Assembly: GCA_000091205.1 (NCBI GenBank)
Contig: AP006495.2
Source: Cyanidioschyzon merolae
Lineage: Eukaryota
Strand: one strand, 5' to 3'
DNA: 64,000 nucleotides
Shown here one piece after another: positions 28,605 through 57,200 of this stretch. Position numbers and translations under genes: made by a program. Every line of letters begins with the position of its first letter. Position 1 is the stretch's first letter. Below the pieces are notes generated by a model that saw nothing but the letters and a program-made list of their open reading frames with translations, was not told the origin of the DNA and made no database searches.

Positions 28605-30106
28605 ACGTGCGACAATAATGGAACTGTTTCCGCCAAGCTTGCTCGACATACAAAGTCAATGTTCGGGTCGTTTCCGACTATCATGACCACTAGTCCTCGC
28701 ATGATCTTGCAGCGACTGCTTGATTCTTTCTCTCTTCTTTACGCTCATAAGCACGTCCGTCCCTCAATGCCCTCATGTTTCGTTACCAGCAGCTGAGGAT
28801 GTTCGTCGCAGCTTGCAAGCCCCGATTCCGCTGCTCGCAGCGGTTGTCAACGTATTCCATGCACACGCTGAGGTTGCCATGGACGCTCCGCTTGCCCCAA
28901 GGATCGTCTTGGCCCTCGGCCTCGGCGCACCTCTCGCAGCGGCGACACGTTACTATGGGTAGGTGTTCCCCAGCGTCCGCGATACCTCCTCCAGCTCCGA
29001 ACGCCGCACATTTGCGTACGGAGACTCGCCTCGTCGCGCGGCACACAACCATGACATGTACAGAAGGCTCTTCTCGATGCTATGCGACGTTTTCGCACCC
29101 GGTGCCGTACTCCGTGATCAGGGACTTTGTCTGAACTTTCTCCTCGACATGTGCGTTGGCCGCTGCACGCGCAATCGCACGCTGCCTTGTTCGAGAACTC
29201 ACCAGGTGATACGCGTCACGGCCTTGGTGACGTTCCAAATCGGTTTGCCCCGAGGAGAAGACGTTCGAATGTATCACAAGACTCCTCCACCGTTCTCCGC
29301 TGCTTCCGGCAAAGAGGCGGTTTTGTGCAACCGATGGTGTCCATGGAAGAAAACCAGTGCGGGAAGGAAGGGCCAGGCTGGCGATCGCGTCGAGCGATAC
29401 CGACTCCGCTGCGCTGCGGTTGTTCAAAGCGCTGCCGGAGTCTCGGCTCTGACAGACCACTGCCACGACTCAGGTTCGAGTCCAAGACCGTTTTCCGTGC
29501 AAGCAGAAGAGATGGGAGCCTTGGCGGGCCCCCGCCCAGGGTGGCTGCACGCGGCTGCTATTGAATGCCGTTTCGTCGATGGCGCCAAAGCGAGGACGCT
29601 TTATCTGTTGGACGGGATCGACCTTGTAAGGTGACGAGTGCAGGGAGCTCTCGGCGCGAGCCCGTGGAGAGGCTGACAACAAGCGGCGTCGCATTTCTCC
29701 TTGTCAACCCAGCTGTGCAGAACGCTGCGCCCTCCAGTCGTCCCGAAACACAAAGATGAGATATGTGAAGCACGCGTGATTTGAGCTTTCCATACGTAAG
29801 GACGGAGAAGAGTGGAAGCTGGTTCGTATGAGCTGGCTCGTGATGTCGGTTCCTATACGATGCCGTGCTCGAGGGCGTCGCGAACCATCGTCTTGATTCT
29901 CGTGATGCAACGAGCACTAGCGACAAAAGGTTGGCGGAGCCGCTCCGAAGCGACAACCGAGCATCCAAAACCTGGTCATGAATCCATACGCGCCCATTGC
30001 TACATTTAGGATGTCGAGTCTGTACATGTAGAGAAAGTCCAGGGAGAATCGAAATGTAAACAGAGCAGGTAGGTCAGTGTTCTTTTTTGTTATGATACGG
30101 ATATTG
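28605..30106. repeat. segmental direct duplication, copy 1 (about 1.5 kb, >99% identical to 32412..33913)
   Basis: The ORF track lists identical ORFs at a constant offset of 3807 bp (e.g. 28963..29634 = 32770..33441). Both junctions can be read directly in the sequence, and only a few substitutions separate the copies. Confidence 0.9.
29600..30070 (+). repeat. dispersed repeat family 1 copy forming the 3' end of segmental-duplication copy 1 (an identical copy at 33407..33877 lies in copy 2)
   Basis: Contains gaaacacaaagatgag...ggagaagagtggaagctggttcgtatgag...cgtgctcgagggcgtcgcgaacc...cgctccgaagcgacaaccgagcatcc...gatgtcgagtctgtacatgtagagaaag. Confidence 0.6.
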
Positions 30107-32411: not shown

Positions 32412-33913
32412 ATGTGCGACTATAATGGAACTGTTTCCGCCAAGCTTGCTCGACATACAAAGTCAATGTTCGGGTCGTTTCCGACTATCATGACCACTAG
32501 TCCTCGCATGATCTTGCAGCGACTGCTTGATTCTTTCTCTCTTCTTTACGCTCATAAGCACGTCCGTCCCTCAATGCCCTCATGTTTCGTTACCAGCAGC
32601 TGAGGATGTTCGTCGCAGCTTGCAAGCCCCGATTCCGCTGCTCGCAGCGGTTGTCAACGTATTCCATGCACACGCTGAGGTTGCCATGGACGCTCCGCTT
32701 GCCCCAAGGATCGTCTTGGCCCTCGGCCTCGGCGCACCTCTCGCAGCGGCGACACGTTACTATGGGTAGGTGTTCCCCAGCGTCCGCGATACCTCCTCCA
32801 GCTCCGAACGCCGCACATTTGCGTACGGAGACTCGCCTCGTCGCGCGGCACACAACCATGACATGTACAGAAGGCTCTTCTCGATGCTATGCGACGTTTT
32901 CGCACCCGGTGCCGTACTCCGTGATCAGGGACTTTGTCTGAACTTTCTCCTCGACATGTGCGTTGGCCGCTGCACGCGCAATCGCACGCTGCCTTGTTCG
33001 AGAACTCACCAGGTGATACGCGTCACGGCCTTGGTGACGTTCCAAATCGGTTTGCCCCGAGGAGAAGACGTTCGAATGTATCACAAGACTCCTCCACCGT
33101 TCTCCGCTGCTTCCGGCAAAGAGGCGGTTTTGTGCAACCGATGGTGTCCATGGAAGAAAACCAGTGCGGGAAGGAAGGGCCAGGCTGGCGATCGCGTCGA
33201 GCGATACCGACTCCGCTGCGCTGCGGTTGTTCAAAGCGCTGCCGGAGTCTCGGCTCTGACAGACCACTGCCACGACTCAGGTTCGAGTCCAAGACCGTTT
33301 TCCGTGCAAGCAGAAGAGATGGGAGCCTTGGCGGGCCCCCGCCCAGGGTGGCTGCACGCGGCTGCTATTGAATGCCGTTTCGTCGATGGCGCCAAAGCGA
33401 GGACGCTTTATCTGTTGGACGGGATCGACCTTGTAAGGTGACGAGTGCAGGGAGCTCTCGGCGCGAGCCCGTGGAGAGGCTGACAACAAGCGGCGTCGCA
33501 TTTCTCCTTGTCAACCCAGCTGTGCAGAACGCTGCGCCCTCCAGTCGTCCCGAAACACAAAGATGAGATATGTGAAGCACGCGTGATTTGAGCTTTCCAC
33601 ACGTAAGGACGGGGAAGAGCGGAGGCTGGTTCGTATGAGCTGGCTCGTGATGTCGGTTCCTATACGATGCCGTGCTCGAGGGCGTCGCGAACCATCGTCT
33701 TGATTCTCGTGATGCAACGAGCGCTAGCGACAAAAGGTTTGCGGAGCCGCTCCGAAGCGACAACCGAGCATCCAAAACCTGGTCATGAATCCATACGCGC
33801 CCATTGCTACATTTAGGATGTCGAGTCTGTACATGTAGAGAAAGTCCAGGGAGAATCGAAATGTAAACAGAGCAGGTAGGTCAGTGTTCTTTTTTGTTAT
33901 GATACGGATATTG
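32412..33913. repeat. segmental direct duplication, copy 2 (immediately upstream of the TerC start)
   Basis: Same sequence as 28605..30106 shifted by 3807 bp. It diverges after gatacggatattg at 33913. Confidence 0.9.
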
Positions 33914-51510: not shown

Positions 51511-53235
51511 TCACGAATGGTTGGATGGATGCTTTGCGACCGGCCAAGAAGGCGCAGGTCGTTTTCTCCAGGAAAGTACTCCAAATAGGAGTCCCTTTCT
51601 CGAAAGAAAAATCACAAAACATCCAAGAAAGACCGTTGCCAGCGCCGTCGTGCCGAGAACAGTCCCCAGCCAAGGCGCCAACGAGTCTGTAATATTGTAC
51701 CAGGGACAATTCAGGTTCATGCCGAAGATATCTGCGATGAAGTTCATCGCAAAAAACATTGCTGTACACAAGTGCTGCAGTAAGTTGAATGCGAGCATGC
51801 GGTTCTGCACGGCGTCTAGCTTGATATCCATTGTTGCCTCCGAGTCGTTGACTTTTTCATCCAGAAGCTCAGCGCGATTTGAAAGCGCCTGAAACAGCTG
51901 GTAATAGCTTTCCAGTAGCGTTTCTACGTATTCATGATCTAGTGGATGGCGCGGTGTTTCCGGATGGTAGTACTTGTCAGTCAAATACATGTTGGACATA
52001 TCATCGTCTTCACCGAGGACGCGATCGAATAGCTGCGAGAGTCGTCTGATGCGCGACAAGAACAACGTCAAGTGGCGCATATGCAGACGCATGTTCTCGA
52101 TTCGGCTCGAGCTCAAGGTCCGATTCAAGTCACGCAAGTCTCGATCTATCTGCTGCTCGATCACGAAATAGAATTCCTCGAGTTCAAAGTAGGCTGCGAT
52201 GAACATGCTTTCTAGCACGATAAATTCGAATGCATTGTAGATGTCCAGGCTCGCACTCTGCAATCTTTCCGTGATAATACGGATAGCACGCTGCACCCTT
52301 TCGGCCTCGTGGTTAAAAAGCAACAAACGATGTGATTGGATGACTGCGCGGAGGTAATCATCAAGCACCAGGATTATGGCATTGTCGCGCACAAGTAGCA
52401 CCTGCTCTGAACGAAAAGTTGGATCCACAAGGCGAAGGTCACGCAGCTGTACCGGTTCGCATTTGCTTATGATTCCATCCCTCTCTCTGTGAGTCAATCC
52501 GGTGTTCACCGGGTGAATATCGAGGTCCAGCGCATCCGCCAGCGGAGTTTCCTGTTCAACCAGTACCTTCGAACGACGGCGCGGTGAGGATGCCTCTGCA
52601 GCCGGATATACGGGGCGTCGCAGCTCATCGATGAGATCCTCTTTGGACATCGCTCGCAAGACGCTTCGACCGAAAGTGTCGAATTCGAGGAACTGGATAA
52701 GACTATCCCGCCGCCACATTTTTTCTTTCACGTTTCTCGTGATTGATGTTCGTCGCGACGTCACCATCTCCAGATACTCATGCGCGACGGCAGCCGCAAA
52801 AGTAAGGCCATTCCGACGCAATGTCTGCTCATCGAGCCGAAGATCGGGGCCAAACTTTGCATCCGCTATTTTGTTGACTAGTCTATTACTTGCAAAGGCT
52901 GCAGCTGATGTCAGGACTTTGCCCAGGGTTCCCGGACGTTCCGGTCTCTTCCCTGCGAGCGGGGTGTTGCTGGTTAGCTTCGGTGTCCAGTCGCCAGCTG
53001 CGAGCGTGTCCGGGCCATCACGAGTAGTGCTGCCTCCCGAGAAGGTCCCAACCGCTGGCAACACCGGCAGCGTTCTTTGTCCAGACGCGATTCGTCTCGC
53101 TTGGTGAGAGACACTCTCAGGTGCGGCTGTAAGCGGCGGTGTCGCGCTCCTTGGGCGCTGAAGTTGTTCGAGTTCCGCTGCCGAGACCCTGTGAGGCGCG
53201 TTACGCCTTGTCGTGCTCAGACTGCCCCTACGCAT
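51511..53235 (-). CDS. Mrs2/CorA-family Mg2+ channel, paralog 1 (574 aa)
   Basis: C-terminal two-TM region with a GMN motif (FFAMNFIADIFGMNL) preceded by long coiled-coil helices. It is clearly paralogous to 55896..57200 (EDDDMSNMYLTD...PLDHEYVETLLES versus EDEDMSRMYLTD...PLDHEDVEQLLES). Confidence 0.8.
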   Translation of the reverse strand: MRRGSLSTTRRNAPHRVSAAELEQLQRPRSATPPLTAAPESVSHQARRIASGQRTLPVLPAVGTFSGGSTTRDGPDTLAAGDWTPKLTSNTPLAGKRPERPGTLGKVLTSAAAFASNRLVNKIADAKFGPDLRLDEQTLRRNGLTFAAAVAHEYLEMVTSRRTSITRNVKEKMWRRDSLIQFLEFDTFGRSVLRAMSKEDLIDELRRPVYPAAEASSPRRRSKVLVEQETPLADALDLDIHPVNTGLTHRERDGIISKCEPVQLRDLRLVDPTFRSEQVLLVRDNAIILVLDDYLRAVIQSHRLLLFNHEAERVQRAIRIITERLQSASLDIYNAFEFIVLESMFIAAYFELEEFYFVIEQQIDRDLRDLNRTLSSSRIENMRLHMRHLTLFLSRIRRLSQLFDRVLGEDDDMSNMYLTDKYYHPETPRHPLDHEYVETLLESYYQLFQALSNRAELLDEKVNDSEATMDIKLDAVQNRMLAFNLLQHLCTAMFFAMNFIADIFGMNLNCPWYNITDSLAPWLGTVLGTTALATVFLGCFVIFLSRKGLLFGVLSWRKRPAPSWPVAKHPSNHS

Positions 53236-53720
53236 GGCGAGAGCCTGTCAAACAAAAAGCGGCCTGTAATCTTTGGAGAGCAACAGCACCAAATACCATT
53301 ACCTTTCACGAAGAATAAACCACGAAGCGTGTTGCAGGCCTCGTATACACAAGTATCCGAGTATACGCCAAGAAATGCACCTGACGATAAAATGAGCCAC
53401 GAGTTGACCCGATGCGCTTTTTCTTCTCTCTCCGTCAGTTTACCACGAGCAGCAGTCTGTTTTTCACTCGGTCCGCAAACGTTACCGTCAGAGGCCCACA
53501 AGTCAGTCACACACAAACACCGACACACCTATCCGCACCAACGTCACCGAATATTGTAATCTAAAATGTGTTCAGTGTCACGAGGCGCCGAAGCGACGAC
53601 GGCTCGGGTGGCGTTCAAGACGTCCGGTCCGGTGCCTTCAGGTCCGCCTCCGGGGCGTATCAAGCGAATCCGCGGCGGGCGCCTTGCGCGCAGCGAATCG
53701 CTGCAGGCGCAGATTAACCC

Positions 53721-54610
53721 GGATGCATGCTCGTCGATCGAGCGCTCTTCAGCGTGTACCCGGGATACTCCATTGCGTATGAATGAGATGCGCAAGCCCC
53801 GGATGCATGCTCGTCGATCGAGCGCTCTTCAGCGTGTACCCGGGATACTCCATTGCGTATGAATGAGATGCGCAAGCCCCGGATGCATGCTCGTCGATCG
53901 AGCGCTCTTCAGCGTGTACCCGGGATACTCCATTGCGTATGAATGAGATGCGCAAGCGTCGAATGCATGCTCGTCGATCGAGCGCTCTTCAGCGTGTACC
54001 CGGGATACTCCATTGCGTATGAATGAGATGCGCAAGCGTCGAATGCATGCTCGTCGATCGAGCGCTCTTCAGCGTGTACCCGGGATACTCCATTGCGTAT
54101 GAATGAGATGCGCAAGCCCCGGATGCATGCTCGTCGATCGAGCGCTCTTCAGCGTGTACCCGGGATACTCCATTGCGTATGAATGAGATGCGCAAGCCCC
54201 GGATGCATGCTCGTCGATCGAGCGCTCTTCAGCGTGTACCCGGGATACTCCATTGCGTATGAATGAGATGCGCAAGCGTCGAATGCATGCTCGTCGATCG
54301 AGCGCTCTTCAGCGTGTACCCGGGATACTCCATTGCGTATGAATGAGATGCGCAAGCGTCGAATGCATGCTCGTCGATCGAGCGCTCTTCAGCGTGTACC
54401 CGGGATACTCCATTGCGTATGAATGAGATGCGCAAGCGTCGAATGCATGCTCGTCGATCGAGCGCTCTTCAGCGTGTACCCGGGATACTCCATTGCGTAT
54501 GAATGAGATGCGCAAGCGTCGAATGCATGCTCGTCGATCGAGCGCTCTTCAGCGTGTACCCGGGATACTCCATTGCGTATGAATGAGATGCGCAAGCGTC
54601 GAATGCATGC
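53721..54610. repeat. 80-bp minisatellite, 11 complete tandem copies plus a partial 12th; two unit variants in blocks
   Basis: The unit ggatgcatgctcgtcgatcgagcgctcttcagcgtgtacccgggatactccattgcgtatgaatgagatgcgcaagcccc starts at 53721, 53801, 53881 and so on. Variant B (gcgtc|gaat junction) replaces variant A (gcccc|ggat) in the order A A A B B A A B B B B B. The overlapping 68-aa minus-strand ORFs are a periodic artefact of the array. Confidence 0.95.
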
Positions 54611-55895
54611 CGCCCTGCCCAGCGTATGACGAGACGAATCATTCACGGTAGTGGTGCTGCATCCGCCGGAGATGCGTGGAATGTATGCACACCCCAATGC
54701 TAGGGTGGCTGACTATGCGCTGGTCTAGTGGGAACCCAACTTTGTCGATTGTGTGATCTCATCAGGCAAGGATCAACGTCCGGTAGCGAGATTCAGCCAA
54801 CTGTGTAGCAGACTGGCGACATTCGCACGCCGTGTGTTCGTTCCAGTGTGATGCATCCAAGGATTCCATGTCTATCCGAATTACTGGGCCGGATACGTGC
54901 AGGTCCCGGCGGAACGAAACTCGTAGTGAACTTGCCAACAGCGTCCAATATATTCTGGAACTAGCTCATGAAACGATTTTTCGAAACACCCCTTGGCGGT
55001 CGCAATCGCGCTCGTTTCATCGCCGATGTTCATAACAGCGCACGGTTGGTGCCCTGTATTTCGCTTGTCGGACATGCGATTTCGGGAAAAGATTCCGTTC
55101 GCTTTGCTGCACAATATTGCGATACCTTTGGCATTGGCGTCGAGCAAGCAGCTGTTGCGTCTCTCTCCCGAGAGCATTGTGGTACAAAAAAGTCCCAGCG
55201 GCACTTGTGAAACGTCCTATAGTAATCGAGGGAGCCTGGGCTCACTCGAAGCAGCAGCGACTGCGTTTGGGACTGCAGCGACGCGACGAGCGATCAACCA
55301 CAAACGCTGCAAAGCACATCATACGCCTTGCATTGTGTACGAGACTAGCCTCGTGCCGTAACAGACCACAAATGGGTGTATCGCTTTTTTATAACTGCAC
55401 ACTGGCATTTGTACTGAAGAACGATTTAGCGCTCATTCGTGTTTTCGCTGGAATCTTCTTCGACTTGTTGCGTATGGAACGCGTGCAATAAACTAGAATT
55501 GAAAACATACACGTACTTCAACGACCAGTCTGGCGAGAACGCTGGCGAGAGCAGCATGCCATGAACCCAGATGAACACGCTCGCAAACTGTCGCAGAATT
55601 ACCGGCGATACTGTTAGGTTTTATTGGTTCTCTCGTGCTGTCAATTCGAAGCGTCGGACCATGTGTCCACTAGTCCAGCAGCAAACATCGATAGCGTATC
55701 GCATCAGCGAGTCATCCAGATCGATACGTTAACGCATTCTGGATTGATTGCAGCAGCGCTGCGTACAACGCACTGCTAGTCTTTACGCTGTGCTGCGTAC
55801 TTCTCCGGTAGTCAGCACGATACCCTTGGGTGAAAGTTTACCTGTACTGCGGGACGTGAACGCTGTCCTAGCTTGGATTTTTCCTCTGGATTGCA

Positions 55896-57200
55896 ATGAG
55901 TGTGGCGGGAACGCCTCAGTTCAGCGAACTGAGCGAGGAGAACCAGAACAGCGGTGATGGTTTGGCAAAAAAGTCGCCGAATGGTCTAGAAATGACCAAA
56001 ACGAGCTTTGCGTCAGAGAAGGATACCGGAGCGAGTTGGATGAGCAGCACTGGCTCGCGGGCAACAACCCACCTTGAGTGTTTCGAGTTTTTCGTTGACG
56101 GAAATAGGAAACTTCGAAGCATAAGCCGCTTAGAGCTTCTCCGACGGGCGCGGGAGGCGAGCGCTGACCAACAAGTGGTCGCTGACGTCACTGGTCTATC
56201 CGGAATGTCTGAAGCAGCAGTGCTGGCTGCTGTCGGTATTGATGCTCAGCGGCCGGGCGAGGAGCCTCTCGGCAAGAAGGAGCGGAAGCGCATCCGCCGC
56301 TATTTGAAGGGGTTTCTACAACCACGCGACATCCGCCAGGTCGATCCCGCGTTTGATGCGAAACCAGCGATCTGGGTGCGGCGAAACGTCATCGTCTTTA
56401 GTTTGGAACATCTGCGGGCGTTGATATTTGCGGATGGGCTTCTCTTGTTCAATCCCTCGGAGCAGCGAGTTCAAGCAGCAGCGGAGTCACTGGAGAAGCG
56501 GCTGACTCTGAGCATCAGAAACGAGGACGCAGATCAGGAACCGTTCGAGTTCTGCGCTCTAGATGCGTTGTTGAGTCTCGTTCATGAATACATCGAGAGC
56601 GACCTGAGTGATTTCGAACCCAGCATGTACACGCTGCTGAACGAGCTCACCCATAAGCTGAGCGCGAAACGTCTCGAGCGCCTACGTGTCCTGAAACAGG
56701 ACCTCATGGCTCTTGTTACCCGAATGGATGGTGTGCGTGACGTGCTGCAGGCATTGCTTGAAGAAGACGAAGACATGTCCAGAATGTATCTGACGGATAT
56801 TGCCAGACATCCGAGCGTCACCCGATCACCACTTGATCACGAAGATGTCGAGCAACTGCTGGAATCCCATCTCTATCAGATCGAGGACGCACTGCGACGA
56901 ACGGATTTACTGGCTGCAGCGGTGGACCACACCGAGGATCTGGTGAATATCCAACTGGGGACTTTGCGAAACCGCTTACTCATGGTTGACGTGACACTAA
57001 ATATCATGGAGGCAGTGTTCACGGCAGTCGGTTTTCTGACCGGGCTCTTCACGATGAATCTACAGGCCCCATTTTTCAAGCTGGATAACGGAGGGACGCG
57101 CTGGTTTATCGTTGTGGTTGTGCTGAACTCCTCGTTTGCAATCGTAGCCGTGTTTCTGCTCATTCAATGGGCCCGCAGAGCGCGCTACCTAAATGGTTGA
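55896..57200 (+). CDS. Mrs2/CorA-family Mg2+ channel, paralog 2 (434 aa)
   Basis: GMN motif in FTAVGFLTGLFTMNLQAPFF followed by a second TM segment (WFIVVVVLNSSFAIVAVFLLI). Shares the upstream helices with paralog 1. Confidence 0.8.
   Translation: MSVAGTPQFSELSEENQNSGDGLAKKSPNGLEMTKTSFASEKDTGASWMSSTGSRATTHLECFEFFVDGNRKLRSISRLELLRRAREASADQQVVADVTGLSGMSEAAVLAAVGIDAQRPGEEPLGKKERKRIRRYLKGFLQPRDIRQVDPAFDAKPAIWVRRNVIVFSLEHLRALIFADGLLLFNPSEQRVQAAAESLEKRLTLSIRNEDADQEPFEFCALDALLSLVHEYIESDLSDFEPSMYTLLNELTHKLSAKRLERLRVLKQDLMALVTRMDGVRDVLQALLEEDEDMSRMYLTDIARHPSVTRSPLDHEDVEQLLESHLYQIEDALRRTDLLAAAVDHTEDLVNIQLGTLRNRLLMVDVTLNIMEAVFTAVGFLTGLFTMNLQAPFFKLDNGGTRWFIVVVVLNSSFAIVAVFLLIQWARRARYLNG

Follow-up and report, generated by a model that had tools for sequence, protein, structure and literature searches.

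The 80-bp tandem array in the shared upstream region of two Mrs2 genes of the alga Cyanidioschyzon merolae is likely to be a young, probably polymorphic minisatellite of a single locus, which would have arisen by slippage or unequal exchange and whose function is at most putative. The window, i.e., the whole 64 kb stretch of DNA that was analyzed, is part of C. merolae 10D chromosome 13, and both flanking proteins as well as the product of the next gene were exact matches to the 10D entries BAM81114, BAM81115, and BAM81116. This chromosome has a length of 866,983 bp in the finished genome (PMC1955436, Table 1). The coordinates of the array, its boundaries, and the flanking genes are listed in Table 1 of this study.

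Table 1. Positions of the array, its boundaries, and the neighboring genes in the window
Feature	Position	Strand	Evidence
80-bp minisatellite, 11 full units and a 10-nt partial unit GAATGCATGC	53721..54610		TRF, exact core matches, unit table
Left boundary, AACCCGG followed by ATGCATGC; its CCCGG (5 nt) is that of the A-type junction	53716..53730		direct sequence reading
Right boundary, where the B-type tail GCGTC leads into the closing partial unit GAATGCATGC	54596..54610		direct sequence reading
GCGTGGAATGTATGC, 13/15 match to the B junction, 78 bp past the last junction	54674..54688		local alignment, P ~0.03
Mrs2a, Mrs2-like Mg2+ transporter, BAM81114, 574 aa, GMN	51511..53235	-	Pfam PF22099, E 6e-29
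Mrs2b, Mrs2-like Mg2+ transporter, BAM81115, 434 aa, TMN for GMN	55896..57200	+	Pfam PF22099, E 3e-43

Structure and unit composition of the array

TRF identified a single array in the 64 kb window, which was located at 53723-54610 with a period of 80, 11.1 copies, 98% match, 0% indels, and a score of 1692. In a pass with a lower threshold over the same 64 kb, all remaining tandem repeats scored 47 or less, and the 80-bp array is the sole sizeable tandem repeat of the window. The 42-nt core of the unit occurred 11 times at an exact spacing of 80 nt, where dinucleotide-preserving shuffles expect 0. The unit is non-coding with a G+C content of 55%, and the array opens with GGATGCATGC and closes with the partial GAATGCATGC.

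Variation between the units of 10D was confined to a 6-nt block at the junction, which reads CCCCGG in the A type and CGTCGA in the B type. The two types are separated by three linked substitutions and are arranged blockwise. From left to right, the junctions follow the order A' A A B B A A B B B B B, in which A' is the A-like ACCCGG of the left boundary. The tails of the units follow the order A A B B A A B B B B B, so that AABB occurs twice in succession. Head-to-tail arrangement, a unit size within ~10-100 bp, and a high copy number are the hallmarks of minisatellites or VNTRs and were all found here, as were interspersed variant units (A and B in 10D, single-substitution variants in the wild contig L019).

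These results agree with most of what an earlier note had read from the same DNA. Its count of 11 full 80-bp units plus a partial twelfth was borne out by TRF, the core spacing, and the unit table, and its two junction variants in the block order A A A B B A A B B B B B were recovered exactly when ACCCGG is counted as A-like. Its view that the array reflects repeated exchange and not a single amplification is also supported, given the three linked substitutions in blocks and the double occurrence of AABB. The statement that the array fills the 2.6 kb between the two gene starts was overstated, as it takes up 890 of 2,660 intergenic bases, at a distance of 485 bp from the ATG of Mrs2a (53235) and 1,285 bp from the ATG of Mrs2b (55896).

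In the right flank, GCGTGGAATGTATGC may be the remnant of a decayed extra unit; the alignment of the whole unit to this position was not significant (P ~0.07).

Recovery of the array from independent assemblies

Public assemblies (JGI, ENA, and Logan) were found by exact look-up of the flanking proteins, and many of the contigs stem from 10D-like populations. Cyanidioschyzon described as “10D-like” was reported from JGI short-read metagenomes in a Yellowstone study (PMC11662350). The flanks of the environmental contigs were 99.5-99.7% identical to the window, with several SNP haplotypes and no indels, and the contigs therefore sample closely related strains independently of one another. Wherever a contig extended to the site, it carried the same 80-bp unit in the same place.

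One unit was assembled in L001, L002, and L016, two in L004, L005, and L007, three in L003, L006, and L013, and four in L019. These assembled numbers of 1-4 do not equal the true copy number, because short-read assemblers collapse an 80-bp period; the minimal traversal of such a period in a de Bruijn graph yields 1 unit at k<=90 and 2 units at k=127-141. An estimate of copy number from the metagenome contigs was rejected for the same reason, the 80-bp period being shorter than the k of the assemblers. Many further contigs broke off within the array or, coming from one side or the other, after ~30 nt of it (L008-L012, L017, L018, L020, L034, L035, and L037). The occurrence of unit-to-unit junctions in independent data, together with these systematic contig breaks, shows that the array truly exists in tandem form and exceeds the read length.

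An artefact of the reference assembly, with a true locus of a single unit, is suggested by the three MEGAHIT contigs L001, L002, and L016, which have exactly one unit plus the terminal 10-nt partial within the same boundary structure. Such one-unit contigs would also be the outcome of a low-k collapse of the 80-bp period, and they are most simply read as collapses. Against an artefact, B-type unit-to-unit junctions were present in at least 10 independent assemblies, and L019 held the A type as well. Many contigs, including Logan contigs built at k=31, ended in the array or ~30 nt into it on both sides, and L017 and L018, which are JGI contigs and belong to the protein lineage of L016, broke within it. 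Clone-based Sanger sequencing was used to finish the 10D genome (PMC1955436). The probability left to an artefact is negligible, and the array is not a product of the reference. The collapse in independent assemblies that the earlier note had named as a check was examined in this way, and the array stood, with unit-to-unit junctions present and contigs breaking there.

Two smaller observations were made next to the array. Position 53609 is C in all environmental contigs that cover it and T in the 10D reference, where T is either a change specific to 10D or a reference error. Four JGI contigs (L036, L038, L039, and L040) end at ~53584-53613 in a GC-rich stretch 110-135 bp before the array, with strain mixture or low coverage as possible causes.

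Variation between strains

The junction that comes after the first unit is of the A type in 10D and of the B type in all environmental contigs extending to it. The wild contig L019 showed the junction order B A B B and contained two units with private substitutions, which change GAGCGCTC to GAGAGCTC and TGCGCA to TGCACA. As far as number is concerned, the environmental contigs had 1-4 units and a different junction order, in a type of assembly in which an 80-bp period collapses. Even allowing for possible assembly artefacts, these differences suggest that the internal structure of the array changes faster than its flanks, which is the behavior expected of a minisatellite.

Apparent confinement to a single locus

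A 22-mer from the core of the unit was compared with JGI metagenome contigs and matched three algal contigs, all of which represent this locus. Two extra matches of the 22-mer (L014 and L015) were rejected as unrelated, high-GC, and probably bacterial sequences with ~24 nt in common by chance. No matches to the 22-mer were found in viral contigs, and within the 64 kb window both the unit and the remainder of the spacer occurred only here. Within the window and the metagenome contigs searched, the unit is confined to this locus.

Membership in a dispersed satellite, or an origin as the internal repeat of a transposable element, would place the unit at several loci, which was not observed in the window or the metagenome contigs. 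Such an origin has some appeal since the window does hold dispersed repeats at 64-75% identity and C. merolae contains an interspersed element with 253 copies (PMC1955436). Neither the unit nor the neighboring spacer recurs in the window, however, and among algal sequences the metagenome scan gave no locus but this one. Convincing terminal inverted repeats were also lacking around the array, the one pair detected being 25 nt long with 72% complementarity and 1.5 kb apart. We therefore consider a dispersed origin barely credible. The earlier note had held that a common genome-wide satellite would remove its idea of a locus-specific role; run on the window and the metagenome contigs, this check gave no other algal locus, and the idea is not refuted on that account.

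A direct duplication of 1.5 kb at 99.5% identity (28607-30106 and 32414-33913) has its copies ~3.8 kb apart. The dispersed repeats of 64-75% identity lie on both strands at 16399-16882/34206-34676, 2075-2386/42879-43193, and 2088-2590/17233-17761, and further ones in this range of identity at 47052-47639/57958-58549 and 11877-12241/47518-47886. They may be copies of the 253-copy interspersed element (PMC1955436).

Orthologous loci in related lineages

The head-to-head Mrs2 pair was also present in Cyanidiococcus yangmingshanensis (70% protein identity) and in a second lineage (67%), in which the gene order thioredoxin-UBX, ketoacyl synthase (KAS), Mrs2a, Mrs2b, MoeB-like ThiF-rhodanese, and cullin is kept. 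The spacers between Mrs2a and Mrs2b measured 993 bp in C. yangmingshanensis and 1,079 bp in the second lineage. Neither of the two contained a tandem repeat or an enrichment in k-mers of the unit. When the unit and the whole C. merolae spacer were compared by BLAST with the orthologous loci in three related lineages, nothing was returned. As the sister spacers have neither the repeat nor similarity to it, the array is specific to the C. merolae lineage and dispensable for the existence of the gene pair.

In a more distant lineage of Cyanidiophyceae (52%; L030, 7001-10300), the Mrs2 genes are co-oriented and 96 bp apart with conserved neighbors, which implies that one of the genes was inverted at some point.

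Coding potential and RNA predictions

Open reading frames of 68 aa recur on the minus strand of the array, one per 80 nt, and all of them terminate. No frame can remain open along the array, as 80 is not divisible by 3, and these ORFs are periodic artefacts, as the earlier note had proposed; the 80-nt recurrence, the stops, and the lack of a Pfam match all agree with this. The longest ORF that overlaps the array had at most 102 aa. None of six ORFs in and around the array, including those of 68 and 98 aa, had a Pfam match above threshold, the best being a zinc finger at E 0.04.

A unit of ~80 nt falls in the size range of small RNAs, and unusual permuted tRNA genes are known in C. merolae (PMC3728597), which would fit units that are small-RNA genes (snoRNA-like, permuted tRNA, or similar) or an array transcribed as non-coding RNA. 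The predictions went against this. Rfam gave 0 matches at E<=1 on both strands of 53000-56100, a scan that, owing to the tandem arrangement, took in the unit in all its circular permutations, and ARAGORN found 0 tRNA or tmRNA genes in the whole window. Folding of the unit in four registers and strands gave energies equal to those of shuffles (z -0.2 to +0.7) on both strands, as calculated with DNA and not RNA-specific energy parameters. With neither an RNA family nor, under these DNA parameters, a stable fold at hand, a cluster of tandem small-RNA genes appears extremely unlikely.

Palindromes and regulatory potential

Palindromes and dyads are features recognized by dimeric DNA-binding proteins. 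Every unit of the array contains TCGATCGA, GCATGC, and CCCGGG, as the earlier note had described, and additionally GAGCGCTC, ATGCAT, and TGCGCA. An imperfect dyad, TTGCGTAT-N7-ATGCGCAA, is also present in the unit. The six palindromic 6-mers of the unit exceed what is found in 80-mers of the window (P ~0.001), and the probability falls to ~0.0006 (~0.06%) when the two 8-mers are included. Compared with dinucleotide shuffles of the unit, the excess was marginal (P ~0.02-0.035). Neither TCGATCGA nor GAGCGCTC occurred elsewhere in the 64 kb, and they are therefore not recurrent promoter elements here.

The earlier note had put forward the array as a set of regulatory sites or a tunable promoter element. 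In its fullest form, this reading takes the array as multimerized putative sites for a dimeric transcription factor, which would act as a copy-number-tunable enhancer or silencer of one or both Mrs2 genes. Candidate sites would be TCGATCGA, GAGCGCTC, the dyad TTGCGTAT-N7-ATGCGCAA, or an RY-like CATGCAT on the minus strand. It draws on the location of the array upstream of both genes, 485 bp from the start codon of Mrs2a and 1,285 bp from that of Mrs2b, on palindromes that are more common than in genomic 80-mers, and on an array structure that seems to vary between strains and would supply raw material for tuning. The motifs are, however, not conserved in the orthologous spacers. The sister lineages maintain the same gene pair with a spacer of ~1 kb that lacks repeats, resemblance to the unit, and k-mer enrichment, TCGATCGA and GAGCGCTC are not found in the rest of the 64 kb, and the palindrome excess shrinks to a marginal one once dinucleotide content is kept. 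The wild array of L019 is substituted inside both GAGCGCTC and TGCGCA, which argues weakly against each palindrome being indispensable. A search of the literature on the array, on minisatellites, promoter repeats, or promoter motifs of C. merolae, and on Mrs2 regulation in this alga returned nothing relevant, and no transcription factor for the unit motifs in C. merolae emerged from it. With the unit and its palindromes absent from the sister spacers and their excess marginal, the regulatory claim was not supported, and we regard it as unlikely.

A more specific version, to which we assign a very low probability, is a strain-variable dosage element in which the units would bind a putative dimeric factor and unit number would tune both Mrs2 paralogues among hot-spring populations. 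If it were true, the handling of Mg2+ or other metals by the two paralogues (GMN versus TMN) would be fitted to local water chemistry.

Proposed origin of the minisatellite

A minisatellite formed at this locus could have had a progenitor of 80 bp of unique spacer DNA with G(G/A)ATGCATGC at both ends, i.e., a direct repeat of 8-10 nt. Short direct repeats of this kind are where a first slippage duplication typically starts. Between them, replication slippage or an unequal exchange of sister chromatids would have produced the first duplication and with it the B junction (...GCAAGCGTCGA followed by ATGCATGC). The A junction (...GCAAGCCCCGG followed by ATGCATGC) probably goes back to a register-shifted copy or a short conversion tract that involved the first unit, because CCCGG (5 nt) is common to the A junction and the left boundary. 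Later block duplications may have included at least one step of 320 bp, as the repeated AABB indicates, and an expansion of the run of B units would have brought the total to 11. The units being otherwise identical, the expansions would either be recent or the array would be continually homogenized. These steps may also have followed another order, and they may have been events of unequal crossover, slippage, or conversion.

The array is most likely a neutral or nearly neutral length polymorphism that pushes apart the two halves of the region upstream of both genes. If Mrs2 expression is affected at all, this would be incidental to the spacing or to multiplied chance binding sites for proteins. 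The C. merolae genome has a size of 16.5 Mb, and the retention of ~0.9 kb could reflect use, as such tandem repeats are rare in a compact and repeat-poor genome.

Comparison with known repeats

Well-known intergenic or promoter VNTRs include the one located 5' of human INS, and roughly one in four yeast promoters contains tandem repeats that alter expression upon a change in length. The C. merolae array shares with them the head-to-tail arrangement, a unit of 10-100 bp, the location upstream of genes, and a few variants in blocks, and it apparently also differs between close strains with flanks that are >99% identical. In contrast to these promoter repeats, the C. merolae array has at most putative effects on expression, chromatin, or protein binding, and variation in its true copy number is likewise putative. 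It likewise resembles tandem duplications seeded by microhomology, being bounded at its start and at the terminal partial by the same 8-10 nt (ATGCATGC). A simple duplication of this type differs from an array with 11 copies, two junction types, and an AABB block, for which further unequal exchange or conversion would be needed.

Among the repeats of C. merolae itself, i.e., telomeric (AATGGGGGG), subtelomeric, and centromeric repeats and the 253-copy element, the array joins the few repeats of this genome. The centromeric regions of C. merolae are AT-rich. In contrast to the known classes, the array has an unrelated sequence, a single internal locus, a G+C content of 55%, and no coding capacity.

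As a rare and probably hypervariable marker in a repeat-poor genome, the minisatellite could serve to type C. merolae strains and wild populations of the Yellowstone type. It is also a trouble spot for short-read assemblies, which collapse or are interrupted there. An influence of unit number on Mrs2 expression, to which nothing points, would make the locus a simple and editable case of repeat-length control over a transporter pair in a genetically tractable alga.

The flanking Mrs2 genes

The flanks of the array were assigned to two head-to-head Mrs2 paralogues, as the previous reading had stated, by their matches to PF22099 (Table 1). Mrs2a and Mrs2b share 32% identity, and with so little in common they are old paralogues and not the product of a recent inverted duplication. 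Both have the MRS2-like domain, and the C-terminal GMN of the Mrs2/CorA family is present in Mrs2a and represented in Mrs2b by an aligned TMN.

In the alignment, Mrs2b reads F-T-M-N at the usual G-M-N site of the Mrs2/CorA signature. Its orthologues carry TMN in Cyanidiococcus and the second lineage and TVN in the more distant lineage, and GMN is kept in Mrs2a and in the outgroup homologues. The substitution is a conserved change in the pore/selectivity motif of one paralogue, Mrs2b.
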